39,970 bases of DNA from the UHGV virus genome UHGV-0404708; one strand, given 5' to 3'. The position numbers were made by a program, and so were the translations under genes. Within the stretch, counting starts at the first letter, position 1. Each line of letters begins with the position of its first letter. The notes beneath the pieces were generated by a model that ran no database searches, had not been told where the DNA came from, and saw only the letters and a program-made list of their open reading frames with translations. Positions 2,964 to 39,127 of the stretch are shown here, in pieces. The stretch is from a virus.

Positions 2964-5434
2964 TGGCTATCAGTTGGATCCAGCCCAGCTTTGCCGGTGG
3001 TGAGATTGGACCGTCGTTGTACGGTCGTATCGACATGGCGAAGTACCAGGTGGCATTGCGCAAGTGCGATAACTTTATCGTGCGGCAGTATGGGGGTGTT
3101 GAGAATCGACCAGGTACGCGTTTTGTCGGTGCCGCCAAATACCCAAATCGGAAATGCCGCCTGATCCCGTTCCAGTTCTCGACGGTTCAGACTTATGCTC
3201 TGGAGTTCGGACACCAGTACATGCGCGTTATCAAAGATGGTGCGTTGGTGCTGAACAGCAGCAATGTTATTTATGAAATTGCCACGCCATATACTGAAGC
3301 CGATCTGTTCCGAATTAAATTCACGCAAAGCGCAGACGTGCTTACGCTTGTTCATCCGGCATACCCGCCGAAAGAGTTGCGTCGCTATGCGCATGACAAC
3401 TGGCAACTGGTTGATGTGGTAACGAAGAACGGACCATTTGAAGATATCAATATTGACGAGTCAGTGACGGTTTATGCCAGCGCCAGCACCGGGACAATTA
3501 CGTTAACGGCAAGCGCCTCTATTTTTGGCGCGGAGCAGGTAGGCAAATTGTTCTATCTGGAACAGCCTGCTGTGGATTCTGTGCCGGTATGGGAAACCAG
3601 TAAGAGTACGTCGATTGGCGATATTCGCCGTGCAGACAGTAACTACTATCGCGCCGTTACAGCAGGCAAAACAGGCACTTTGCGCCCTTCGCATACAGAA
3701 GGCACATCATGGGATGGCTGGGGCGGCTCCGGTGATGATGATACTGGCATTGAGTGGGAGTATCTGCACAGTGGTTTTGGCATTGCCCGTATAACTGCTG
3801 TAAATGGCACCTCAGCAACTGCCGAGGTGATTTCCTATATCCCTTCGCAGGTAGTTGGCGAGGATAATGCCAGCTATAAATGGGCTAAATATGCCTGGAA
3901 CAGTATTAACGGTTATCCTGGCACTGTTGTTTATTATCAACAACGTCTTTACTTCGCCGCATCGACTGCGTTCCCTCAGACTATCTGGGCCAGCCGTACT
4001 GGGGATTATAAGGATTTTGGCAAAAGCAATCCTACGCAGGATGACGACAGAATTATCTACACCTATGCCGGGCGTCAGGTTAATGAGATCCGCCACCTGA
4101 TTGATGTTGGTTCGCTGGTAGCGCTGACTTCCGGAGGTGAGTACGTCATCACCGGCGACCAGAACAAAGTATTAACCCCATCATCATTTGCATTCAGCTC
4201 TCAGGGATCAAATGGCTCGAGCAATGTCCCACCAATTGCCGTGGCGAATATTGCTCTGTTCGTCCAGGAGAAAGGCAGTGTTGTCCGTGATCTGGCCTAC
4301 TCATTCGATGTTGACGGCTATCAGGGGAACGACCTGACCATCCTTGCCAATCATCTTTTTCAGAAGCACAGCATTGTTGACTGGTGCTTCTCTATTGTCC
4401 CTTACTCCAGCGCCTTCTGCATTCGTGATGACGGTAAATTACTGGTGATGACCTATTTGCGTGATCAGCAGGTTTTTGCATGGGCACCACAATCCAGTAC
4501 CGGAAAATATGAAAGCACATGCAGTATCAGCGAAGGCAATGAAGATGCGGTGTATTTCGTCGTTAACCGAACCGTTAACGGGCAAACAGTGAGATACATC
4601 GAGCGGCTGTCCAGCCGTTTATTTACCAGCGATGAAGATGCTTTCTTTGTTGATTCTGGCCTTAGCTATGATGGAAGAAATACGTCTGACAGAACGATGA
4701 CCATCACTGGTGGTTCTGGTGAATGGGATTACCGTGCGGAATATACAATCAGTGTTTCTGGTGGTGCGTACTTCACCAGTAGTGATGTCGGTGCGCAACT
4801 ACAGTTCCCTTATACCGGAACTGATCCTGATACTGGCGATGAAGTGTCAAAAGAATTACGTTGCGACATTATTTCTGTAACCAGCAATACCGCTGTAGTG
4901 GTTCGTCCTAACAGGAACGTCCCGCCATCCCTCAGGAATGTGGCCACCACGAACTGGCAGATGGCGCGCCGGACATTTGGCGGCTTGTCTCATCTTGAAG
5001 GTCAGACCGTAAACATCCTCTCTGATGCGAACGTGGAACCACAGAAAGTAGTTTCCGGAGGTGCCGTCACGCTGGAATCTCCGGGGGCTGTAGTGCACAT
5101 CGGCCTGCCAATAACTGCTGAATTCGAAACACTGGATATCAACATTAACGGACAGGAAACGCTGCTGGACAAAAAACAGGTGATCCCGTCAGTTACTCTG
5201 GTTGTGAATGCCAGTCGCGGCATCTGGGCGACTACGCCCGGCGGTAAATGGTACGAATATCCACAGCGTGAATTCGAGTTCTACGATGATCCTGTTGATG
5301 ATGCTACCGGAAAAGTAGAAGTGAAGCTGGACAGTAACTGGGGCAAAAACGGACGTGTAAAAATCCGTCAGCTTGACCCGTTGCCGCTGTCTGTTCTTGC
5401 CGTTATTCCTCGCCTTACTGTTGGGGGATTCTGA
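2963..5434 (+). CDS. tail tubular protein B-like (nozzle)
   Basis: 823 aa; size, position and N-terminus (MA-IS...GGE) consistent with T7 gp12-type proteins; not searched. Confidence 0.55.
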   Translation: MAISWIQPSFAGGEIGPSLYGRIDMAKYQVALRKCDNFIVRQYGGVENRPGTRFVGAAKYPNRKCRLIPFQFSTVQTYALEFGHQYMRVIKDGALVLNSSNVIYEIATPYTEADLFRIKFTQSADVLTLVHPAYPPKELRRYAHDNWQLVDVVTKNGPFEDINIDESVTVYASASTGTITLTASASIFGAEQVGKLFYLEQPAVDSVPVWETSKSTSIGDIRRADSNYYRAVTAGKTGTLRPSHTEGTSWDGWGGSGDDDTGIEWEYLHSGFGIARITAVNGTSATAEVISYIPSQVVGEDNASYKWAKYAWNSINGYPGTVVYYQQRLYFAASTAFPQTIWASRTGDYKDFGKSNPTQDDDRIIYTYAGRQVNEIRHLIDVGSLVALTSGGEYVITGDQNKVLTPSSFAFSSQGSNGSSNVPPIAVANIALFVQEKGSVVRDLAYSFDVDGYQGNDLTILANHLFQKHSIVDWCFSIVPYSSAFCIRDDGKLLVMTYLRDQQVFAWAPQSSTGKYESTCSISEGNEDAVYFVVNRTVNGQTVRYIERLSSRLFTSDEDAFFVDSGLSYDGRNTSDRTMTITGGSGEWDYRAEYTISVSGGAYFTSSDVGAQLQFPYTGTDPDTGDEVSKELRCDIISVTSNTAVVVRPNRNVPPSLRNVATTNWQMARRTFGGLSHLEGQTVNILSDANVEPQKVVSGGAVTLESPGAVVHIGLPITAEFETLDININGQETLLDKKQVIPSVTLVVNASRGIWATTPGGKWYEYPQREFEFYDDPVDDATGKVEVKLDSNWGKNGRVKIRQLDPLPLSVLAVIPRLTVGGF

Positions 5435-5898
5435 TGATCTATGTTCAAATTATTCCCGCAACCGAAGAGCATCTTCAGATGATTTTGCCGGATGTTCGTC
5501 AGGCTGATATTGACGAACTGTATGCGGTATCACTGATGACTACCGAAGATGCGCTGCGTGTTGGTCTGCGTACTGCGACTATGGCCTGGTCAGGATTTGC
5601 GAACGGAGAACTGGTAACCATGTTTGGCGTATCTCCGGCGTCAATGATCGGTGGCAATGGTACGCCATGGCTGGTCGGAACCAGCCGTATTGAAAAATAT
5701 CAGAAGACATTTCTTCGCCACTGCCGACCTGTATTGCAGCAGATGCTGGCAGTTTATCCGCGCCTGGAAAACTACGTCGACGAGCGAAACCATGTTGCCA
5801 AAGCATGGCTGCACTGGCTTGGATTCAGGCTTGAAGAAGCCGCGCCTTATGGTGCTCTTGGTCTTAATTTCCACAGATTTCACATGGAGAGAAAATAA
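5434..5898 (+). CDS. hypothetical virion/assembly protein
   Basis: 154-aa ORF; TGATG overlap with upstream stop. Confidence 0.6.
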   Translation: MIYVQIIPATEEHLQMILPDVRQADIDELYAVSLMTTEDALRVGLRTATMAWSGFANGELVTMFGVSPASMIGGNGTPWLVGTSRIEKYQKTFLRHCRPVLQQMLAVYPRLENYVDERNHVAKAWLHWLGFRLEEAAPYGALGLNFHRFHMERK

Positions 5899-6443
5899 TG
5901 TGCGATCCGGTTATTGCTGGTGGCGCAATGCTCGCCATGAGTGGCATTCAGGCATACACCCAGTACCAACAGGGAAAGTATGCCTCGAAGGTTGCAGAAG
6001 CGAACGCAGATATAGCCACAGCTCAGGCAAATGATGCAATAAACAGAGGTAACGCTGAAGCTGAGCAACGGCGCAGAGAGACCCGACAGCGGCTTGGTAC
6101 ACAGGCGGCGACAATGGGGGCTACCGGCGCTGATTTATCTACAGGTAACGCGCTGGATATATTTGGCGACACTGCCCAGTTTGGCGCTCTTGATTCGCTG
6201 ACGACGGTGAATAACGCGCAACGCGAGGCTTACGGTTATCAGGTTCAGGCTGCTAACTATAAAGCAGAAGCCAGTTCAGCCCGTAAACAGGGGAATGTGG
6301 GAGCAGCAACAACATTGCTCACTGCTCCTCTGAAGGCATACGGTGCGTACCAGATGTTTGGTGGGACGTGGAGTCCGTTTACTCAAAGCACTCCTGCGCC
6401 AATCGGGGCAGCAGCAGGAACCAGATTACCCGGAGGATTATAA
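5898..6443 (+). CDS. internal virion protein (gp14-like position)
   Basis: 181 aa, Ala/Gly/Gln-rich; TAATG overlap with upstream gene. Confidence 0.55.
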   Translation: MCDPVIAGGAMLAMSGIQAYTQYQQGKYASKVAEANADIATAQANDAINRGNAEAEQRRRETRQRLGTQAATMGATGADLSTGNALDIFGDTAQFGALDSLTTVNNAQREAYGYQVQAANYKAEASSARKQGNVGAATTLLTAPLKAYGAYQMFGGTWSPFTQSTPAPIGAAAGTRLPGGL

Positions 6444-14017: not shown

Positions 14018-14650
14018 TTAATGCAGTTTATCTTTGCTTATAACCAGTAGTCTGTGGGTATGCACATCTTTATCACTGCCCCAACAGAAATCAGCCCACT
14101 GGCTATAGAAATCATCCCATGATGTCATGAAGCTAAGAGGTCTATCTTCTTCAGAGCCATCTGAAACGTATACATTATATCCTGGGGTGTTTATAGCCCA
14201 AGAAATCATTCTTTCCCAGAATCTTCTCCCATCGATTGTTTGTTGCTCATCAGATACAACGATCGCATATTGCTCTAGGAAGAACTGAAAAAAAATCTGA
14301 GGCAAACCATGAACAGCACGGTCATGAATAACATTAGGCGTACGCCATACCATGATCTGCGTACATGTTCTTTTGGCTTCGACGATATCTTCCCGAAAGA
14401 TTAACTTAACCGCATACACCGTTTCTGGAGTATCGCTGGTAGTAATCATTCTGTAATGATCGCCATTACAAGATTTTACAAGGCGATAACCATAAGGTGT
14501 TGTGAATCCCGGAAGAACGAAATCAACCACACCTTTCGCTAAGTAGCTTTCGGTGTGACTAGTGTTCTTCTCAGACATGTTCAGTTTTCTATCGAAATCT
14601 GCTTCTGGGATAATGTATGGCATCGCTTTTCTTGTTGTATTTGTTCTCAT
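14018..14650 (-). CDS. hypothetical protein (unrecognised, accessory)
   Basis: Track ORF 14018..14662; ATG 14650 preferred (SD GGAGGA 5 nt upstream); AT-rich; own operator-like site upstream. Confidence 0.7.
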   Translation of the reverse strand: MRTNTTRKAMPYIIPEADFDRKLNMSEKNTSHTESYLAKGVVDFVLPGFTTPYGYRLVKSCNGDHYRMITTSDTPETVYAVKLIFREDIVEAKRTCTQIMVWRTPNVIHDRAVHGLPQIFFQFFLEQYAIVVSDEQQTIDGRRFWERMISWAINTPGYNVYVSDGSEEDRPLSFMTSWDDFYSQWADFCWGSDKDVHTHRLLVISKDKLH

Positions 14651-14708
14651 TTCGTCCTCCATGTTTGGCTACAGGACGCGTTTTGAAGGGAAGATTAAAA
14701 ATGCTTTC

Positions 14709-14795: not shown

Positions 14796-15515
14796 TCAGA
14801 AGAACCCTGCCTTGTCGTTGATGTACTCCGCGTGCGTCTGGATATCACGCAGGCATTTGCTCACACCGACGATGTAGCAGAACATGGTGGTCAGCTCCGC
14901 CGCCGCGCCCGATACGTCGTGCCCGTCGTCCTGTAACTGGTTCAGCAGATTCATCAGCAGTGAGTTCTCAGTCAGGCCGAGAACACCAGACGGGGAATGA
15001 ATCAGGCTGCGGTAGCCGGGCTTCAGCGGGGCACTGTATTCTTTTTTGTCTTCCAGCTTGATCGCCTCCATAATGGCGGGCATGAATTTTTCAATTACCT
15101 GAGTGGCCTTTGATAAATCAGCTCCACCTGAGAGACGAACATCTCCACTGACATTTGCGGGTTTTCTGTCGAAGTAGCAATCTTCCAGTTTTTCGAAGAC
15201 CTCCCACGCTTTTTCAGTCTCAAGAATTTTCGCATGTCGTGCTGCACCGCGAGCGGTCCATAAGAAAAGATGACTTACTTTTGGTGCAATATTAAGCAAA
15301 CCTCTTTGAGAGGACTCGTTCTTAAATGCTCGTAATTCTTCGCCTGTCAGCTTGAAACAATGTTTTCCCTCAATGAATCGATCTGCATTTCGTTGATAGT
15401 TTTGACGAATCAGTTTGGGTTCTGTGTCATACAAATCAGCAAGCATTTCTGTAGTCATTACAGGGATGTTGCAATGAGTTGTTATCGGCAACTTATCAAT
15501 AGCTATATTACGCAT
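14796..15515 (-). CDS. ORF6N-domain protein with C-terminal domain paralogous to 16329..16586 (antirepressor-like)
   Basis: Track ORF 14796..15530; ATG 15515 preferred (SD GGAGG, 8-nt overlap with upstream stop); N-terminus fits the ORF6N/KilA-N-type DNA-binding pattern; C-terminal ~60 aa align with the 85-aa protein. Confidence 0.65.
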   Translation of the reverse strand: MRNIAIDKLPITTHCNIPVMTTEMLADLYDTEPKLIRQNYQRNADRFIEGKHCFKLTGEELRAFKNESSQRGLLNIAPKVSHLFLWTARGAARHAKILETEKAWEVFEKLEDCYFDRKPANVSGDVRLSGGADLSKATQVIEKFMPAIMEAIKLEDKKEYSAPLKPGYRSLIHSPSGVLGLTENSLLMNLLNQLQDDGHDVSGAAAELTTMFCYIVGVSKCLRDIQTHAEYINDKAGFF

Positions 15516-16014
15516 TTTCATTGCCTCCATCTTTCACGACGAAATAGCAATTATCTTTATAATCTAACTGGATGAACTTTATGTTTTCAGGGAGTTTTAC
15601 AGAAAGAGTTTTTGCACAAGCAAAACCAAAATCTGCGCCAGAAGCATCCATATACCTTAATAATTGTTTTAATGCTGAAGGAGAAAAAGTATCTACCTTC
15701 ACCTCAACAGGGTAACCATCTTTTGTTTTTAGGTCTGGTTGACCTGGTCCACCAAGTATTTCAGCGTTAAGGTATTTTGCTATTTCTGGATAAGCGTTGT
15801 ATTCAGAGCGTAGTTTTGCCTTGTTATCGACTGCTAGTTGCATAAGATGATCAAACAAATTGGTATCTAAATCTGCCCCTTCATCCCACATTCTATTTCT
15901 ACAGCTAATCAATTCACTGACCAGAGGTGCACTTTCTTGCCTTAGCATAAGAAGGAGTGGAGAATTAGAAATTAACCAATACAGATCGTCGTTTGAGATT
16001 TTTTGGCCTGGCAT
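15508..16014 (-). CDS. hypothetical protein, possible PD-(D/E)xK-like motif
   Basis: 168 aa; SD AGAGGT 7 nt before ATG; segment GQPDL...YPVEVK resembles a D...E-x-K nuclease motif (weak); translationally coupled to next gene. Confidence 0.6.
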   Translation of the reverse strand: MPGQKISNDDLYWLISNSPLLLMLRQESAPLVSELISCRNRMWDEGADLDTNLFDHLMQLAVDNKAKLRSEYNAYPEIAKYLNAEILGGPGQPDLKTKDGYPVEVKVDTFSPSALKQLLRYMDASGADFGFACAKTLSVKLPENIKFIQLDYKDNCYFVVKDGGNENA

Positions 16015-16328
16015 AGCGATACCTCTACTAGTAAGTTACCCACCACCGCAACGCCAATTGCTGGTGGTGAACTGGACAAGGTTGGCGTACCGGCCTAGTA
16101 GGTACCGGCGCACCTTTCGGTGCCCCTGCCCAGCCCACCATAATTCGGATATGACTGTGCTATACGCATAAAAAAACCACGTCTGGCGTGGTATGCGCCT
16201 ACTAGTAATCCGGGACGCCAATCCCGGCACTGGATTTTGCCAGTGCCCGATTACTATGGCACAAGAGGAGTGCGATGTAAATTTACCGCAAAGGTAAATA
16301 TAAGCACTCCACTTGGTAATTGCAAACC
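16015..16328 (-). ncRNA. heavily structured intergenic element (candidate ncRNA or cis-regulatory leader)
   Basis: 314 nt without convincing ORF between two minus-strand genes; at least five stem-loops, two with identical hexaloop, one GNRA-type loop, an internal hairpin plus T7 run, 8-bp direct repeat GTACCGGC x2. Confidence 0.35.
16170..16192 (-). terminator. intrinsic terminator-like hairpin inside the structured element
   Basis: Minus sense ACCACG-CCAGA-CGTGGT followed by TTTTTTT; T-tract itself flanked by complementary CGCATA/TATGCG. Confidence 0.4.
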
Positions 16329-21014: not shown

Positions 21015-22271
21015 GTGCTTACCGATACAAAATTAAAGAACCTCAAGCCACAGGACAAACTGTACAAAGTTTCCGATCGTGACGGGCTGTATGTAGCTGT
21101 GCTTACGTCAGGTACGGTCTCGTTTCGCTATGACTACCGTATCAACGGTCGCCGCGAAACACTGGTAATTGGGCAGTATGGGCGTGACGGTATCAGCCTG
21201 GCAGAAGCGCGAGAAGAACTGATTGCTGCAAAGAAGCTGCTTAAAGCAGGCCAGTCACCGGCTGCGGCTAAACGTGACGGTATCAAAAAGATTCGTGGTG
21301 CCGAGACGTTTGCGGTACATACCGACAGTTATATGAAACACGTCATCCTGGCTGAAAGTACCCGCGCAATGAAGCTGGCAGTGATCGACCGTGACATACT
21401 TCCTGTTCTTGGCAACAAAATGATGGCTGAAATTACCACATCGATGGTTCGTGATTTGTGTGACAGGATTGTCGAACGCGGTGGTCGGGCAACAGCAGTG
21501 CAGGCCAGGGAGATCATCAGCAGCGTATACCGTCACGCCAATGACCGTGGTCATGGTTTGTTTAATCCTGCGGCTGACATTAAACCTTCGTCTATCGCCA
21601 TATTTAAACCACGAGAGCGAACACTGACACCAGAAGAAATTGGCCTGTTCTTCCGCACGCTGGATGCCATTGGTGCTATGGGCACTATGAAAATGGCTTT
21701 AAAGCTGGTGCTTATCACTATGGTTCGTAAAGGCGAATTCACCAATGCAACGTGGGATGAAATAGATTTTAAAAAATGGACATGGACAATTCCTTCAGAC
21801 CGCATGAAGGGAAGCCGGGCGCACGTTATTTACCTGCCTAAACAGGCACAGGATATATTGGTTGGGTTGCAGATGTGCGCTGGTGGAAGTGAATATCTGG
21901 TTCCTGGTCGTTACAATTTCCGGAAGCCATTATCTAATGCCGCGCTGAACTCTCTGATCGACAGAACGGTGAAAATAATAAATGAAGATGGTGAGCATAT
22001 TCAGGACTTCACCGTACACGATATGCGCCGTACAGCAAGTACGTTGTTGCATGAGGCTGGTTATCCTTCAGACTGGATTGAAAAGGCTCTGGCACATGAG
22101 CAGAAAGGTGTGCGCGCCGTATATAACAAAGCGGAATACGCCAGACAGCGCGCCTACATGTTGCAGCAGTGGGCCGATATGATTGATTCCTGGATTAACG
22201 GGGAGCATACGGATCTGATTCCGTTCTCCCCGTCGAAGTTTGAGAAGTGGATGGAAGACAGTAATAAATAA
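21015..22271 (+). CDS. int: tyrosine integrase, P4-type
   Basis: 418 aa, GTG start; N-terminus MLTDTKLKNLKP... typical of P4-family integrases; recombinase-like C-terminal half. Confidence 0.9.
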   Translation: MLTDTKLKNLKPQDKLYKVSDRDGLYVAVLTSGTVSFRYDYRINGRRETLVIGQYGRDGISLAEAREELIAAKKLLKAGQSPAAAKRDGIKKIRGAETFAVHTDSYMKHVILAESTRAMKLAVIDRDILPVLGNKMMAEITTSMVRDLCDRIVERGGRATAVQAREIISSVYRHANDRGHGLFNPAADIKPSSIAIFKPRERTLTPEEIGLFFRTLDAIGAMGTMKMALKLVLITMVRKGEFTNATWDEIDFKKWTWTIPSDRMKGSRAHVIYLPKQAQDILVGLQMCAGGSEYLVPGRYNFRKPLSNAALNSLIDRTVKIINEDGEHIQDFTVHDMRRTASTLLHEAGYPSDWIEKALAHEQKGVRAVYNKAEYARQRAYMLQQWADMIDSWINGEHTDLIPFSPSKFEKWMEDSNK

Positions 22272-26619: not shown

Positions 26620-27204
26620 TTATTGTTTGCTTTTTTCGTTCTGGTTGATGACAAATTCAATGTAACTTTCGATCTTTGCTTTCTCGGTTTCGGGTAACAA
26701 TGCGTAGCGCGAGCGGTCATAGTTGATGGTCGCAGGGTCGTGCGGGTGAATCAGTAATTCATAGCCGTGACGCCCGAATGCGGATGCAACATTCTCCAGG
26801 GTGGAAATGGAAACGCTGACCTCATTGTTTAACAGGCGGCTGATTGTCACCTGGGCGACGCCGGATGCGCGGTGAAGTTTTCCCTGCGTTGAAAGGTCGC
26901 GGCTTTCGCTCATCCAGCGTTCCAGGTTGTGAGCCGCCAGCTGACCAATGTCGCTTGGGCCGACAGGCTGAAAACCTTCCTGAGAAAGCGAGCGATCGAT
27001 ATCAAGCCAGTTACGGGGTTTATTGGCGGCAGCTTCAATTTTTCGTGCAACCTGGTCGCCGATAACCTTCTTGCCAAGAGCCCAGCGGTTTACCAGATTT
27101 GCCTGAGTTCCAAGTTTTTCTGCCATCCGCGTCTGAACACCATTGAATTCACGGTCGATCAAGTCGTTGAGATTTTGCCTGCGGACGTCCTGGATACTTT
27201 TCAT
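26620..27204 (-). CDS. immunity repressor with two HTH-type segments, no autopeptidase domain
   Basis: 194 aa; HTH-like segments near aa 24-46 and 120-155; divergent from Cro-like gene across operator region; no Ala-Gly...Ser...Lys LexA-type cleavage module. Confidence 0.7.
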   Translation of the reverse strand: MKSIQDVRRQNLNDLIDREFNGVQTRMAEKLGTQANLVNRWALGKKVIGDQVARKIEAAANKPRNWLDIDRSLSQEGFQPVGPSDIGQLAAHNLERWMSESRDLSTQGKLHRASGVAQVTISRLLNNEVSVSISTLENVASAFGRHGYELLIHPHDPATINYDRSRYALLPETEKAKIESYIEFVINQNEKSKQ

Positions 27205-33993: not shown

Positions 33994-34590
33994 ATGATGC
34001 CTGCTGAACCTAAAACCTATAAACGCAAATCAACGCAATTTAAGCCACTAACAGCAATGCAGGAGGCTTATTGCCAGTCATACATCAAAACGCCTGAAAA
34101 CCAGACTCAGGCAGCGATTAACGCAGGATTTTCCCCAAATACAGCGGCAGTTAAAGCCAGTGTCATGATGCGCGATGAACGCATTCAAAAACGGATTGCC
34201 GAGTTGATGGAGGAGCGCAACAAACGAATACGCGTCAGTGCTGATTACGTTCTCATGCGGCTGGTGGAGATCGACCAGATGGACGTGATTGATATCCTCA
34301 ACGACGATGGGAGCCTTAAGCCAATCCGCGAGTGGCCGAAAATCTGGCGCACTACGCTTAGCGGCTTTGATCTGTCATCGACCATCATGAACATGAACGA
34401 GGATTCGATAGAGACAATCCTCAAAAAAATTAAATGGCCTGACAAGGTGAAGAACCTCGAACTGATTGGTAAGCACGTCGACGTCAACGCATTCAAAGAA
34501 CGCCTAGATGTTAATGTGAATGTGACAATTGCTGATCGCATAGCAGCAGCCAGGAAGCGACTCAAAGAACGTCAGGATGGTAATCAGTGA
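33994..34590 (+). CDS. terS: terminase small subunit
   Basis: Track ORF 33916..34590; ATG 33994/33997; small-terminase-like composition; stop overlaps terL start. Confidence 0.7.
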   Translation: MMPAEPKTYKRKSTQFKPLTAMQEAYCQSYIKTPENQTQAAINAGFSPNTAAVKASVMMRDERIQKRIAELMEERNKRIRVSADYVLMRLVEIDQMDVIDILNDDGSLKPIREWPKIWRTTLSGFDLSSTIMNMNEDSIETILKKIKWPDKVKNLELIGKHVDVNAFKERLDVNVNVTIADRIAAARKRLKERQDGNQ

Positions 34591-36062
34591 CAGATACAGT
34601 GTTATCTCCTGAAGAGCAGTTGATCGAGGATATTGCAGGGTTTACTCACGATCCGCTTGGTTATGCCATCTATGCGTTCCCGTGGGGGGAAGAGGGGACT
34701 GAACTGGCACATGCTACTGGCCCACGTCAGTGGCAGGCTGATGCGTTCCGAGAGATACGTGATCACCTGCAGAATCCAGAGACGCGCTATCAGCCGCTTA
34801 TGCTGGCACGCGCTTCTGGTCACGGTATTGGTAAATCCGCATTCATTTCAATGCTGATCAACTGGGGCATGTCCACTTGCGAGGATTGTAAGGTCGTGGT
34901 GACCGCCAACACCGACAACCAGCTACGAACGAAGACCTGGCCGGAAATTATCAAGTGGTCGAACCTTGCTATCACGAAAGACTGGTTTACCTGTACCGCT
35001 ACCGCGATGTACAGCAATGACCCTGGGCACGACAAGCGGTGGCGAGCTGACGCAATCCCCTGGTCTGAGCACAACACTGAGGCATTCGCCGGACTACACA
35101 ACGAGCGCAAACGCATCATCGTGGTATTCGATGAAGCGTCGAACATTGCGGATCTGGTGTGGGAAGTTGCTGAGGGGGCGCTTACGGACGAAGACACTGA
35201 GATTATCTGGGTGGCGTTCGGAAACCCTACACGTAACACCGGACGTTTCCGCGAATGTTTCCGCAAATATAAACACCGCTGGAAAACTGCGCAGATTGAC
35301 AGCCGAACGGTGGAAGGCACTAACAAACAGCAGTTGCAGAAATGGGTTGATGACTACGGGGAAGACAGCGACTTCGTTAAAATCCGTGTGCGCGGCATAT
35401 TCCCTGATGCATCTGAATTGCAGTTTATCCCTACCGGTCTTACTGATGAGGCAATGAAACGGGTGGTAACCGCTGCGCAGGTGGCGCATGCTCCGGTGAT
35501 AATCGGCGTTGACCCGGCATACTCCGGCGTTGATGACGCTGTGATATACCTGCGGCAGGGGCTGCACAGTAAGGTGCTATGGACTGGCAACAAGACCACT
35601 GACGATCTGATTATGGCGAAGCGTATCGCTGACTTTGAAGACCAGTACCAGGCTGACGCGGTGTTCATCGACTTCGGTTACGGAACCGGTCTGAAGTCAA
35701 TCGGTGACGGATGGGGTCGTACATGGCAACTTGTTCCGTTCGGTGGCGCGTCTACTGACCCGCAGATGCTCAACAAGCGTGGGGAGATGTTCAATTCATG
35801 CAAGACATGGCTGAGGCTGGGCGGCATGCTGGATGACCAGGAAACAGCAGACGACCTGTCGGCGGCAGAGTACAAAGTTCGAGTGGATGGTAAAATCGTT
35901 ATCGAACCGAAGGAAGATATCAAGGAGCGGCTTGGGCGTTCGCCGGGTAAAGGCGATGCGCTACTGCTGACGTTTGCGTTCCCTGTGTCTAAGCGTCTGC
36001 GAATTCCCGGGCAGCAGAACCAGCAAGGCAAGGCCATCACAGATTACGATCCCTATGCTTAA
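34587..36062 (+). CDS. terL: terminase large subunit
   Basis: 491 aa, GTG start overlapping terS stop; Walker A-like GHGIGKS; nuclease-type C-terminal half. Confidence 0.9.
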   Translation: MTDTVLSPEEQLIEDIAGFTHDPLGYAIYAFPWGEEGTELAHATGPRQWQADAFREIRDHLQNPETRYQPLMLARASGHGIGKSAFISMLINWGMSTCEDCKVVVTANTDNQLRTKTWPEIIKWSNLAITKDWFTCTATAMYSNDPGHDKRWRADAIPWSEHNTEAFAGLHNERKRIIVVFDEASNIADLVWEVAEGALTDEDTEIIWVAFGNPTRNTGRFRECFRKYKHRWKTAQIDSRTVEGTNKQQLQKWVDDYGEDSDFVKIRVRGIFPDASELQFIPTGLTDEAMKRVVTAAQVAHAPVIIGVDPAYSGVDDAVIYLRQGLHSKVLWTGNKTTDDLIMAKRIADFEDQYQADAVFIDFGYGTGLKSIGDGWGRTWQLVPFGGASTDPQMLNKRGEMFNSCKTWLRLGGMLDDQETADDLSAAEYKVRVDGKIVIEPKEDIKERLGRSPGKGDALLLTFAFPVSKRLRIPGQQNQQGKAITDYDPYA

Positions 36063-36112
36063 TCCGCTGGTTGGGATAATGTCGTTGATATCCTCTGATG
36101 AGGATAAAACAA

Positions 36113-36139
36113 AGCCAGCTCATCGGCTGGCTGTTTGTG
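36113..36139. terminator. bidirectional terminator-like hairpin
   Basis: AGCCAGC-loop-GCTGGCT with GTTTGTG on plus side and TTGTTTTA on minus side; between convergent terL and 36153..36524. Confidence 0.5.
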
Positions 36140-36148
36140 ACATGTCAC
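36137..36148. repeat. GTGACATGTCAC palindrome, copy 3
   Basis: Perfect 12-bp palindrome 5 nt beyond the stop of minus-strand gene 36153..36524, adjacent to terminator hairpin. Confidence 0.8.
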
Positions 36149-36152
36149 GGTG

Positions 36153-36524
36153 TTATTGCTCGCTTAGCTTCTGCTTCAGCAAGTAACCTTCGAGCATCCA
36201 GATTTTGTTTACAGCATTCTGCCGGGCAATCTTCCGACCAATTTCTGCATCAAAGTTTTCCGGGCTTGCACAGGCGCTCTCTCCGGTGACGGTGAAGCCG
36301 TTGCGCAGCACCAGGACGCAGAACGTCAGCAGAGAAAGTGATTCGTGCGGCTGGTAGTTTACCTCCCCGCCAGTATGTTTCGCTTTTATGGCTTTGCCAA
36401 AGGCACCATCTTCTGCTGTGAAATATGCCTCCTGAGCAATAATGCCTTCGATATGGTCTGGCGTAACGCGCGGTGCCGTTTTGCCTTTCTCAACGATTTC
36501 TTTTTCGATTTGCTGGTCGTTCAT
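36153..36524 (-). CDS. hypothetical protein (N4 Gp49/Sf6 gene 66-like small phage protein)
   Basis: 123 aa; SD AAGGTGAG before ATG; family call from memory, weak. Confidence 0.5.
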   Translation of the reverse strand: MNDQQIEKEIVEKGKTAPRVTPDHIEGIIAQEAYFTAEDGAFGKAIKAKHTGGEVNYQPHESLSLLTFCVLVLRNGFTVTGESACASPENFDAEIGRKIARQNAVNKIWMLEGYLLKQKLSEQ

Positions 36525-36535
36525 AATCTCACCTT

Positions 36536-36559
36536 AAAAAAATGCCCGGCGAACCGGGC
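36536..36559 (-). terminator. rho-independent terminator downstream of tRNA
   Basis: Minus sense GCCCGG-TTCG-CCGGGC followed by T7-8. Confidence 0.7.
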
Positions 36560-36722
36560 GAACTGGAAGCAATGAGTTATGCCTTCCGTGGCTGTACTGG
36601 TTTACAGCATGAAGTCATCGCAATGGCGTCCTGCTGTAAAAAGGGTGGTGGTAGTCCTTCAAGGGAAACCATCACCGCCAAGCCCCTGGAACTTCTGGCA
36701 TCACGGTCCTTAGGCGTGATTC

Positions 36723-36799
36723 TGGCGTGGCATGCAGGATTCGAACCTGCGACCAACCGCTTAGAAGGCGGTTGCTCTGTCTAACTGAGCTAATGCCAC
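36723..36799 (-). tRNA. tRNA-Arg (anticodon UCU)
   Basis: Minus-strand read GTGGCATTAGCTCAGTTAGACAGAGCAACCGCCTTCTAAGCGGTTGGTCGCAGGTTCGAATCCTGCATGCCACGCCA folds as cloverleaf: 7-bp acceptor, GCTC/GAGC D-stem, ACCGC/GCGGT anticodon stem with loop CU-UCU-AA, GCAGG/CCUGC T-stem with TTCGAAT loop, encoded CCA. Confidence 0.9.
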
Positions 36800-37121
36800 A
36801 ACGCTGAGAGCACTTAGCCTGTTAAGGCGCCACACTTTGTCGCGGCTCCATAAATGCTCTCATCGTTGTACCCTCGTCTCTTCCGAGGCGTCACACCGAA
36901 TCGCCGGGATGGTGAATCCCCGTGCGCGGAATAAAACCGCTCGACTTGCACATTCCGGCTACCTGGTTCGTTTGCCCGAGAAAGGGAGGGTGCCCCTTAA
37001 ACGTATCCAGACCGCTATCGGCGCATGTGCCATACGCCGTACTGCTCAAAATAAAAGCTCACTCCACCTGTTCAATTTAACGACAAGCCAGTCAGGTTAG
37101 TAACCGGAATGAGCTCCTTAG

Positions 37122-37136
37122 TTACCTGAAAGGTAA
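37122..37136. promoter_or_regulatory. operator-like palindrome
   Basis: TTACCTGAAAGGTAA exact; intergenic between tRNA and portal operon. Confidence 0.5.
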
Positions 37137-37177
37137 TAATTCACGCGTTAAATGTCAACCGTCTACGATAAATAAAT

Positions 37178-37186
37178 CATATGTGG
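37178..37186. promoter_or_regulatory. CATATGTGG motif (CCAYATRTGG family)
   Basis: Inside ~25-bp block (37171-37200) near-identical to reverse complement of 18815-18840; about 45 bp upstream of 37227 gene. Confidence 0.35.
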
Positions 37187-37226
37187 TTAAATTGGTAATA
37201 ATTTAATTGCGTACGGAGTCATTGAT

Positions 37227-37433
37227 ATGTGCATGGGTAGCTCACCATCAGTGCCTGCAACACCAGAAGTTCAGGCAGCACCACAGGAGCAGGATGCCGC
37301 CGTTGTTGATGCCCGCGACGAAGAAACTCGTCGCCGTCGCGCTGCTGCTGGTCGTAGTTCTACGCTGCTTACCGGTTCTCATGGCGACACATCAACCGCT
37401 AATACCAGCGGTAAAACGCTGCTTGGTCAGTAA
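37227..37433 (+). CDS. small hypothetical protein preceding portal
   Basis: 68 aa; SD GGAG in context GGAGTCATTGATATG, repeated before portal start. Confidence 0.5.
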   Translation: MCMGSSPSVPATPEVQAAPQEQDAAVVDARDEETRRRRAAAGRSSTLLTGSHGDTSTANTSGKTLLGQ

Positions 37434-37447
37434 CCGGAGTCATTGAA

Positions 37448-39127
37448 ATGGCGGAAACAACTAAAGAGCGATTGAACAAACAGTTCGCACAACTTGAAAG
37501 CGAGCGTCAGTCGTTCGAGCCGCACTGGCGCGAGTTGAGTGATTACATCAACCCGCGTGGTTCCCGCTTTCTGACTTCTGAGGTCAACCGTAACGATCGA
37601 CGCAATACACGCATTATTGATTCGACCGGGACTATGGCGGCGCGCACTCTCGCCAGCGGCATGATGTCAGGCATCACAAGCCCCGCGCGTCCGTGGTTTC
37701 GCCTGGCTACGCCAGATCCTGAAATGATGGATTATGGCCCTGTTAAGTTGTGGCTTGAGGCGGTGCAGAACCGCATGAACGATATGTTCAATAAGTCGAA
37801 TCTCTACCAGTCGCTGCCGCAGTTATACGGAAGCCTCGGCACATACAGCACTGGTGCAATGGCGGTGCTGGAGGATGACGAGGACATCATTCGCACAATG
37901 CCATTCCCGATAGGCAGTTACTACCTGGCTAACTCACCTCGTGGCAGTGTTGACACCTGTTTTCGCAAGTTCTCTATGACTGTTCGTCAGCTTGTTCAGG
38001 AGTTCGGGCTAAATAACGTCAGCGAATACGTAAAAAGCATGTGGGAAAGCGGCACCTACGAGAAGTGGATCGAAGTGATGCATTCGGTTTACCCGAACAT
38101 TGACCGCGATACATCGAAGCTGGATAGCAAGAACAAGCCATTCAAATCGGTTTATTACGAGGTTGGCGGCGATAACGACAAGTTGTTGCGTGAGTCCGGA
38201 TTCGATGAGTTTCCAATTATGGCTCCGCGCTGGGAAGTTAACGGCGAGGATGTTTATGGATCATCATGCCCGGGTATGCTGGCGCTTGGACCTGTTAAGG
38301 CATTGCAGCTTCTCCAGAAGCGCAAGTCGCAGTTGATTGATAAAGCCACCAATCCGCCGATGGTTGCTCCGACTTCCCTCAAGAATCAGCGCGCCTCCCT
38401 TCTTCCTGGCGACATCACGTATATCGATCAGATTACTGGTCAGGATGGTTTCAGGCCTGCTTATCTGGTTAACCCCAGTACAGCAGATCTGGTAGCAGAC
38501 ATTCAGGACACCCGCCAAATCATTAACAGCGCCTACTTTGTCGATCTGTTCATGATGTTGCAGAACATCAATACCCGCTCGATGCCTGTTGAAGCAGTGA
38601 TCGAAATGAAAGAAGAAAAACTTCTGATGTTGGGGCCGGTTCTGGAGCGTCTGAACGACGAATGTCTTAATCCTCTCATTGACCGCGCTTTCTCGATGAT
38701 GGTGCGTAAAAACATGTTGCCGCCACCGCCTGACGCGATGGAAGGTATGCCACTGAAGGTCGAATACATTTCCGTCATGGCTCAGGCGCAGAAGTCTATC
38801 GGCTTGTCCAGTTTGGCGTCCACGGTCAACTTCATTGGTCAACTTGCGCAAGCGAAACCAGAAGCTCTCGACAAACTCAATGTTGATCAGGCGATTGATG
38901 CATTCGCTGATATGTCCGGAGTGTCTCCAACCGTCATTGTTCCGCAGGAACAGGTTGAGCAGGCACGCCAGCAACGGGCACAGCAGCAACAGCAGCAACA
39001 AATGATGGCGATGGGGATGGCGGCGGCACAGGGCGCCAAGACGCTAAGCGAAGCTAAAACTTCGGATCCGAGTGTGTTGTCAGCTATGGCGAATGCAGTT
39101 AGTGGTCAGGGTGGGCAATCACAATGA
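37448..39127 (+). CDS. portal (head-to-tail connector) protein, T7 gp8-like
   Basis: 559 aa; Gln-rich, Met/Ala-rich C-terminal tail as in T7-type connectors; followed by small ORF and scaffold. Confidence 0.8.
   Translation: MAETTKERLNKQFAQLESERQSFEPHWRELSDYINPRGSRFLTSEVNRNDRRNTRIIDSTGTMAARTLASGMMSGITSPARPWFRLATPDPEMMDYGPVKLWLEAVQNRMNDMFNKSNLYQSLPQLYGSLGTYSTGAMAVLEDDEDIIRTMPFPIGSYYLANSPRGSVDTCFRKFSMTVRQLVQEFGLNNVSEYVKSMWESGTYEKWIEVMHSVYPNIDRDTSKLDSKNKPFKSVYYEVGGDNDKLLRESGFDEFPIMAPRWEVNGEDVYGSSCPGMLALGPVKALQLLQKRKSQLIDKATNPPMVAPTSLKNQRASLLPGDITYIDQITGQDGFRPAYLVNPSTADLVADIQDTRQIINSAYFVDLFMMLQNINTRSMPVEAVIEMKEEKLLMLGPVLERLNDECLNPLIDRAFSMMVRKNMLPPPPDAMEGMPLKVEYISVMAQAQKSIGLSSLASTVNFIGQLAQAKPEALDKLNVDQAIDAFADMSGVSPTVIVPQEQVEQARQQRAQQQQQQQMMAMGMAAAQGAKTLSEAKTSDPSVLSAMANAVSGQGGQSQ

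Follow-up and report, generated by a model that had tools for sequence, protein, structure and literature searches.

An accessory tRNA-Arg(UCU) within a modular, structured and probably early noncoding transcript of a Uetakevirus-type phage

Why would a phage carry a tRNA gene in the midst of its late genes, and on the strand opposite to them? UHGV virus genome UHGV-0404708, a stretch of 39,970 nt (hereafter the window, meaning the whole of the DNA analyzed), raises this question with a tRNA-Arg(UCU) gene that lies on the minus strand between the genes for the large terminase and the portal protein of a phiV10/epsilon15-like podovirus of the genus Uetakevirus. A first-pass annotation of the sequence had described the tRNA as an intact, self-contained gene of the late region, with its own terminator and a promoter that could not be located with confidence. 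The phage tRNA and its position between the terminase and portal genes are borne out here; its self-contained nature is not, because a conserved, structured RNA domain takes up the 245 nt that adjoin it upstream and the nearest promoter-like site overlaps an operator. In our reading, which we hold to be likely, the gene is an accessory phage tRNA-Arg(UCU) that occupies the arm slot of a modular, structured, noncoding transcript made early.

The tRNA and the structured unit that holds it

The noncoding unit that holds the tRNA measures about 590 nt and, with its candidate promoter, comprises the following features.

37122-37158, minus strand: candidate sigma-70 promoter and operator (-35 hexamer TTGACA at 37153-37158, 17-nt spacer, -10 hexamer TACCTT at 37130-37135)
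37053-37119, minus strand: SL0, a 5' stem-loop module with the loop motif UUGUCGUUAAAU, from folding and alignment
36864-37044, minus strand: conserved, pseudoknotted 5' domain of about 170 nt, from the covariance model R1 and covariation
37019-37039, minus strand: P1 hairpin of the 5' domain
36945-36963, minus strand: invariant 19-mer of the 5' domain, GGUAGCCGGAAUGUGCAAG
36906-36921, minus strand: P4 of the 5' domain
36890-36898, minus strand: pseudoknot of the 5' domain, P4 loop UCACC with GGUG
36872-36888, minus strand: P5 of the 5' domain, loop GAAGAGA
36799-36868, minus strand: P6, the helix CAACGAUGAGAGCA/UGCUCUCAGCGUUG that closes the variable arm (16 pairs, 97.6% paired, 5 compensatory)
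36723-36799, minus strand: tRNA-Arg(UCU), 77 nt, from ARAGORN and Rfam RF00005, with encoded CCA, A20 and discriminator G73
36700-36720, minus strand: H1, AUCACG-CCUAAGGAC-CGUGAU, immediately 3' of the tRNA, from alignment and folding
36638-36679, minus strand: T1, terminator-like hairpin GGCGGUGAUGG...CUACCACCACC followed by CUUUUU, from conservation and covariation
36603-36638, minus strand: H3, hairpin of the Uetakevirus version only, from folding and alignment conservation
36565-36587, minus strand: H4, hairpin of the Uetakevirus version only, from folding and alignment conservation
36536-36559, minus strand: T2, strong intrinsic terminator GCCCGG-UUCG-CCGGGC with seven U (hairpin at 36544-36559, 6 bp, all GC)

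The tRNA is the only one that ARAGORN finds in the window (tRNA-Arg, anticodon tct at position 35), and RF00005 accepts it as well, with 71.1 bits against a gathering score of 29 (E 1e-13); the gene is apparently intact. The 3' end encodes GCCA, and the D loop AGUUAGACA supplies A20, the main identity element for arginyl-tRNA synthetase. With the host gene argU it shares the anticodon and 84.5% identity over 71 nt, a divergence that the first-pass annotation had rightly noted: the D and T arms almost match those of argU, differences are found in the acceptor and anticodon stems, and the anticodon loop CUUCUAA is the same. Among 27 phage copies compared, the acceptor stem varies while remaining base-paired, and A20 is kept in all 27. 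The region shares 96-98% identity with Escherichia phage phiV10 and its relatives in Uetakevirus, and the tRNA itself is already known, because O157 typing phages 9 and 10, phiv142-3, SPN9TCW and SPC32H all have a tRNA-Arg annotated at the corresponding place in their genomes; one tRNA has also been reported in phage ZX5 (PMC9782041).

What appears to be new is the embedding of the tRNA in a larger structured unit, a context that we found in no description. R1 matches the window once, at 36864-37044, with 152.7 bits (E about 1e-45), and the structure includes, besides the elements listed, helices P2 (which encloses a variable arm) and P3. In an alignment of 16 sequences, 97.7% of the cells are paired and 15 pairs are compensatory, against 30-48% and 1-4 pairs in slid controls, and none of 500 shuffles equaled the observed values. 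Corresponding figures are 97.5% and 12 compensatory pairs for 21 sequences (slid controls 29-48% and 0-3 pairs) and 96.9% and 163 compensatory cells for 69 distinct sequences (slid controls 30-45% and 3-30 cells), the last of these alignments leaning toward the model because it was fitted to it. The pseudoknot partners change to UAACC and GGUU in one lineage. Invariant G-U pairs are compatible with the minus strand only, so the domain RNA would have the same sense as the tRNA, and the variable columns of the conserved block are free of codon periodicity. An alternative P2 proposed by RNAalifold, GCGGUCCGG:CCGGAAUGUGC, was rejected: its columns are invariant, and it is broken by variants that covary in the adopted P2. 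Upstream of the domain, the SL0 stem reads AGCUCA/UGAGCU in the window versus GCGCGC/GUGCGC in phages PAT1 and Tyrion, with compensatory differences visible, and SL0 folds at -28.2 kcal/mol (z = -3.0). A stem module of the form GAGYGCRC...GYGCRCUC, often with the loop motif GUCGUUAAAU and followed by CAG-N-GUUGUGG, recurs one or more times per leader; it was seen at 37053-37119 of the window, in records L076, L041 and L120, and at 5800-6160 of phage LLS (L178).

The domain recurs in phages of other types. By sensitive BLAST, 36796-37040 is 82% identical to unannotated DNA of cdtI, mEp460, Ayreon, 2H10 and Stx2c phages, and the intergenic alignment alternates conserved blocks with arms of very unequal length, compensatory changes again being visible. 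The invariant 19-mer (GGTAGCCGGAATGTGCAAG) marks more than 120 loci in viral contigs, and a search of species-representative genomes with an independent motif yields 23 true members, all from Enterobacterales and 22 of them with the exact 19-mer; a further 19 pattern-scan hits outside this order have neither the 19-mer nor an R1 match and were set aside as chance. The domain is held by 83 phage records, including P1/P7, Stx2 phages (Stx2a, Stx2c) and cdtI, in almost all of which it is unannotated, and the full phiV10-type version is carried by about 502 of 5426 complete E. coli genomes (~9%). Rfam 15, searched at E<=10, returns only the tRNA family from 36050-37300 besides chance-level matches, with nothing for the 5' domain, and it returns no family for this domain from seven homologous loci either. 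At the homologous E. coli loci listed, the NCBI pipeline annotates the tRNA alone, and a literature search by sequence string and topic, incomplete in its coverage, found neither the 19-mer in print nor a description of the domain. The 5' domain appears, then, to be an undescribed RNA family in well-studied phages, a strongly constrained RNA left unannotated in such classic and medically important ones as P1, P7, Stx2a/Stx2c and cdtI.

Three genomic contexts can be distinguished. In Uetakevirus the large terminase and portal genes flank the domain, which may or may not be accompanied by a tRNA. In lambdoid phages it directly follows the promoter/operator by cI, i.e. the PL/nutL position of lambda, and it precedes terminator hairpins and early-left genes with no N gene between. 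In P1, P7, D6 and SJ46 a truncated form (helices P1 to P5) lies between trnI (tRNA-Ile2, CAU) and ban; in phage P1 (L131, NC_005856) it covers L131 1658-1844, which is 71019-71205 of the record, scores 140.7 bits and is unannotated in the reference. The first genes downstream vary by context and show no conserved protein partner: they are of unknown function or ParB-like, and none is N-like. Two further observations concern these loci: the P1 stretch also has a partial STnc100-like match upstream of tciA (L131 719-838), and record L026 carries two tandem copies of the domain, at 3992-4157 and 4799-4962, about 800 nt apart.

P6 links the domain to the tRNA, in that it ends in CAGCGUUGUGG and its last pair uses G1 of the tRNA. 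The arm that it closes ranges from about 40 to more than 250 nt among homologues. In 69 distinct tRNA-less copies the motif GUUGUGG pairs with a downstream CCACAA(C/A) to close an arm whose median length is 108 nt, and this closing helix is often followed by CCA or CAA. In 29 copies a tRNA-Arg begins inside the same GUUGUGG motif, with the GUGG/CCAC acceptor stem of the tRNA in alignment with the arm-closing helix. The arm starts with UGUGGUGAAU in 49/145 copies, and its contents differ widely. In L116 the arm and terminator give a full-length match to Rfam STnc100 (RF02076; 45.8 bits against a gathering score of 47, E 4e-7). The arm of Phytobacter ursingii (L136, L171) is read by ARAGORN as a tRNA-Ile(AAU) whose 8-bp acceptor stem UUGUGGCG/CGCCACAA is formed from the GUUGUGG motif and is followed by CCA, and which is likely a pseudo-tRNA. 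Still other arms hold T-arm-like hairpins with GGUUCGAUUCC, and the Rfam tRNA model gives no match to the non-tRNA arms. Compared in this way, tRNA, pseudo-tRNA and STnc100-like bodies would be interchangeable cargo in one arm slot, at whose 5' edge RNase P may cut. Such exchange suggests a route by which prophage small RNAs (sRNAs) could arise from, or be replaced by, tRNAs.

On the 3' side, H1 is kept in Uetakevirus relatives both with and without the tRNA. T1 is present in 114 of 153 loci, is 84.8% paired and has 28 compensatory cells versus 2-11 in slid controls; it aligns and covaries with the terminators of loci carrying STnc100-like arms and is homologous to the STnc100 terminator. The terminator attributed to the tRNA in the first pass is T2, whose hairpin lies 164 nt past the tRNA 3' end. 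It stands as a strong hairpin, though not as a single terminator, since T1 lies between. A Shine-Dalgarno sequence and the ATG of a cargo gene lie within 12 nt of T2, and, as had been noted, this small gene follows the terminator (a 123-amino acid open reading frame (ORF) on the minus strand, p03). Every relative keeps T2 and the Shine-Dalgarno sequence, the gene that comes next is exchanged among them, and the cargo slot would be reachable only by readthrough of T1 and T2. The genes and signals that surround the unit or bear on its regulation are these.

36153-36524, minus strand: cargo gene p03, 123 amino acids, Pfam PF13876 (N4 Gp49 / Sf6 gene 66; E 9e-35), PHROG 322
36113-36132, both strands: bidirectional terminator hairpin separating p03 from the large terminase gene; the phiV10 annotation also has a terminator here
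34587-36062, plus strand: large terminase gene, flanking the tRNA locus
37448-39127, plus strand: portal gene, Pfam Head-tail_con, flanking the tRNA locus on the other side
21015-22271: integrase gene, 15 kb from the tRNA
26620-27204: HTH_3 repressor/regulator gene, flanked by clusters of the operator palindrome

Promoter, operator and timing

The sole promoter-like site on the minus strand of the locus is TTGACA-17-TACCTT, which is conserved in all aligned Uetakevirus relatives and predicts a transcription start at about 37123. A candidate can thus be named where the first-pass annotation had none, some 325 nt upstream of the tRNA. No promoter-like hexamers occur within the 245 nt upstream of the tRNA (36800-37044), and a promoter directly upstream is precluded because this interval is the conserved structured domain. 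The candidate site is overlapped by an operator palindrome, TTACCTGAAAGGTAA, at 37122-37136. Palindromes of the form TTACC-N5-GGTAA number 15 in the window versus 0.7 expected, at sites that include 14709, 16283, 26486, 26548, 27260, 29584, 29646, 33962 and 37122; they cluster on both sides of the HTH_3 gene, with further intergenic sites, some of them before late genes. The set probably represents the operators of the phage repressor, and the epsilon15 record labels the homologous palindrome as a repressor-binding site. Because the operator overlaps the promoter, and the lambdoid 5' domain sits at the PL position, the tRNA unit is most likely transcribed early and under repressor control rather than late.

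From these elements a course of expression can be proposed. Transcription would start at about 37123, from a putative promoter whose -10 hexamer and start lie inside the repressor operator, and for that reason the unit would be silent in lysogens and come on at induction or infection. The RNA would fold, from 5' to 3', into SL0, the 5' domain, P6, the tRNA, H1, T1, H3, H4 and T2, structures that covariation bears out. As in tRNA biology generally, RNase P would cut 5' of G1 and 3' trimming would end at the encoded CCA; besides the freed tRNA, these cuts would yield a by-product, the 5' domain RNA, about 325 nt long (37123 to 36800). The tRNA would decode AGA and, weakly, AGG, to the presumed benefit of the early replication genes in which most of the excess AGA is found, and readthrough of T1 and T2 would express the swappable cargo p03.

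Codon usage bears on the supposed clients of the tRNA. By crude ORF sets, the window has 8.1-8.5 AGA and 5-6 AGG per 1000 codons; the corresponding values for E. coli K-12 are about 2 and 1, which makes AGA about four times commoner in the window. The AGA-rich genes are an O-like/DnaT gene (8 of its 15 arginine codons), a P-like gene and a Mom-like gene. AGA use also falls from the window (8.5 per 1000 codons) to SPN1S, which has the tRNA (5.9), to epsilon15, which does not (4.2), and this pattern fits a role of the tRNA in supplying early genes. The tRNA appears to be an early, repressor-gated gene with AGA-rich replication clients and no helper of late genes. A 214-amino acid ORF at 14018-14662 on the minus strand, which has no Pfam family, has AGA at 10 of its 14 arginine codons; it could be the strongest potential client of the tRNA or be of recent foreign origin.

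Several observations weigh against the reading of the locus as an early unit with a working accessory tRNA. The -10 hexamer TACCTT has 3/6 consensus matches, and the site is not reported by a consensus promoter scan. The terminase and portal genes have zero AGA codons, and the relation of AGA usage to the presence of the tRNA is a comparison of only three genomes. In epsilon15 the element is almost wholly deleted, and PAT1 and Tyrion have other arms, from which it follows that the tRNA is dispensable in the genus. Compared with phiV10, T1 of the window is weakened by mismatches at 36651 and 36646, of which one is private to the window. The tRNA of the window, alone among the 27 copies, has A18 (G18A, 36782); the other 26/27 read GUUGGA or GUCGGA, the closest E. 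coli prophage (99.3% identical) has G18, and the window copy thus lacks the G18-G19 that is invariant in the tRNA family. Because tertiary contact of the D loop with the T loop universally involves G18, this copy may be impaired, or the base call may be wrong. On the RNA strand, the changes at 36782, 36646 and 36651 are private or near-private G-to-A and U-to-C changes, with relatives canonical at 36782 and 36646; they could reflect decay, sequencing error or adaptation.

Alternative roles of the tRNA and of the 5' domain

The most direct alternative is that of a stand-alone tRNA moron, expressed late from a promoter just upstream and with its own terminator as an aid to late translation. The position between late genes and the strong terminator behind the tRNA speak for it, yet it seems improbable: the 245 nt upstream are a base-paired domain shared with unrelated phages and free of promoter-like hexamers, the nearest promoter-like site carries a repressor operator, and the flanking terminase and portal genes have no AGA codons for such a tRNA to read. 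More serious, if still unlikely, is the view that the tRNA is mainly punctuation, a site for RNase P and 3' processing that parts the 5' domain RNA from the downstream RNA, with decoding secondary and perhaps lost in the G18A copy. It draws on the 69 tRNA-less copies, in which the GUUGUGG/CCACAAC-closed arm is homologous to the acceptor stem GUGG/CCAC, on the pseudo-tRNA and T-arm-like hairpins of other arms, on phage P1, where a tRNA lies directly 5' of the domain, and on the persistence of the G18A copy itself. It is hard to square with the retention of A20 and of all other canonical tRNA features in 27/27 copies, with D and T arms so near to those of argU, with the raised AGA usage and with the failure of the Rfam tRNA model to match the non-tRNA arms.

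Phage tRNAs have anti-defence roles in other systems, and the tRNA could in principle be a replacement or decoy for a host tRNA-Arg cut by an anticodon nuclease or a colicin D-type toxin, the more so as the neighboring cargo slot resembles an accessory-gene hotspot. We regard this as quite improbable, given that the anticodon loop, the same as that of argU, has no escape change where such nucleases usually read and that no defence or counter-defence gene was identified nearby. Very improbable, too, is that the block upstream of the tRNA is protein-coding or acts as a DNA-level site. Short ORFs do overlap the block, and some records annotate hypothetical proteins there, but it shows compensatory changes in 12-15 pairs, a G-U fit to one strand, arms of variable length and no 3-nt periodicity. 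Many prophages integrate into tRNA genes, argU included, and a host-derived fragment or attachment-site (att) remnant would be a familiar outcome; we give it almost no credence. Identity of only 84.5% to argU makes a host-gene fragment untenable, and the gene is full-length, lies 15 kb from the integrase gene and occupies the same internal position in free phage genomes. In ZX5, attP adjoins the integrase gene and attB is the 3' end of guaA (PMC9782041).

An accessory tRNA in an early transcript leaves the 5' domain itself to be explained. An RNA that stays conserved in phages with unrelated virions is usually one that interacts with a host machine, and the extreme constancy of the 19-mer in such unrelated phages suggests a host partner that is itself conserved. 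That the domain is a stable RNA acting on a conserved host factor is a tentative but reasonable possibility; that it is a cis element governing readthrough of T1 and T2, or a scaffold for folding or processing, we consider rather unlikely in either case. A broader and decidedly speculative proposal is that the domain represents a new functional class of phage RNA acting on an enterobacterial host machine (RNA polymerase, Rho, the ribosome or RNase P), e.g. through a readthrough control that is put-like but unrelated to put, and that temperate phages as unlike one another as P1, Stx2 phages and phiV10 would have it in common, as a means of starting up early accessory genes and of delivering cargo, tRNA or sRNA, within a single repressor-controlled transcript.

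A put-like role is attractive in that the domain comes directly after early promoters, with terminators behind it and N absent, and a put-type mechanism has been suggested for the N-less phage LLS (PMC12315714). LLS, however, is without the 5' domain though it keeps the stem, arm and T1 modules, which weakens the notion of the domain as a general substitute for N in N-less lambdoid phages. Each phage moreover has one copy of the domain, and processive antitermination in Uetakevirus would send antisense transcription into the terminase gene. The put element of HK022, about 70 nt with two stem-loops (PMC9378689), is comparable in that the lambdoid 5' domain likewise lies just after PL in N-less phages, ahead of terminators. 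The 5' domain differs from it in size and architecture and in having one copy rather than a left/right pair, and identity with HK022 put was rejected, as the element motifs and R1 match nothing in the HK022 immunity region. A pairing of the 19-mer with T1 as an antiterminator was likewise discarded, being strong only in cdtI-type phages and having a mean z = 0 over 52 T1 variants. In those phages (L005 cdtI, L004 mEp460), the T1 loop and 3' strand CUUGCUUCCGGCUGGUACC are complementary to the 19-mer (about -22 kcal/mol), which may represent a lineage-specific switch.

Parts of the unit recall other known systems. Accessory tRNAs for the rare codons AGA, AGG and AUA are known from Stx phages (ileZ-argN-argO) and from P1 (trnI). 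The Stx-phage tRNAs sit in a late, Q-dependent unit; trnI adjoins the same 5' domain as the window tRNA, but on its 5' side, whereas the window tRNA lies 3' of the domain. GOLLD and ROOL are large phage-associated noncoding RNAs near or around tRNAs, which we take to resemble the present unit; the window element is smaller, confined to Enterobacterales and without an Rfam match. The C4 RNA of P1/P7, the CI RNA of P4 and MALAT1-mascRNA are RNAs punctuated by RNase P, and the window unit is like them in that a tRNA module abuts a functional RNA and could define its end, assuming that the window RNA is so processed. STnc100 and PasD, prophage sRNAs that are bound by Hfq and whose function is unsettled, also occur as solitary genes in Stx-phage late regions (bioRxiv 10.64898/2026.05.13.724894; PMC12370729). 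The window shares the STnc100 terminator as T1, but the tRNA replaces the STnc100 body, and the STnc100 covariance model has no match in the window at E<=10.

Genome context and neighboring modules

The window as a whole looks like a complete, circularly permuted genome of the Uetakevirus type. It also carries a C4 antisense RNA (Rfam, 76.7 bits) beside an isrK RNA (68.1 bits) at 16060-16246 on the minus strand, just upstream, on that strand, of an ORF6N-domain gene (14796-15530). Together these make up a P1-type c4/antirepressor immunity module in a podovirus, and the same C4/isrK pair is present in cdtI and mEp460.

At the tRNA locus, the RefSeq record of phiV10 (L002) annotates a hypothetical protein, PhiV10p04, at 2672-2923 opposite the tRNA strand and omits the tRNA; this ORF is probably spurious. 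Near 36536, and at the homologous point in relatives, the sequence passes a sharp mosaic boundary, located at T2 and the Shine-Dalgarno sequence. Behind T2, the window has the PF13876 gene, a Klebsiella phage has a DUF2829 gene, and SPN1S and E. coli JNE25-001 have other small ORFs; for the PF13876 gene taken by itself, a Stx2a phage has a counterpart with 97.6% identity. Phage Tyrion (L009) has an int-alpA RNA motif at 1004-1068 on the minus strand, between two downstream cargo genes, with 44 bits against a gathering score of 35.8.

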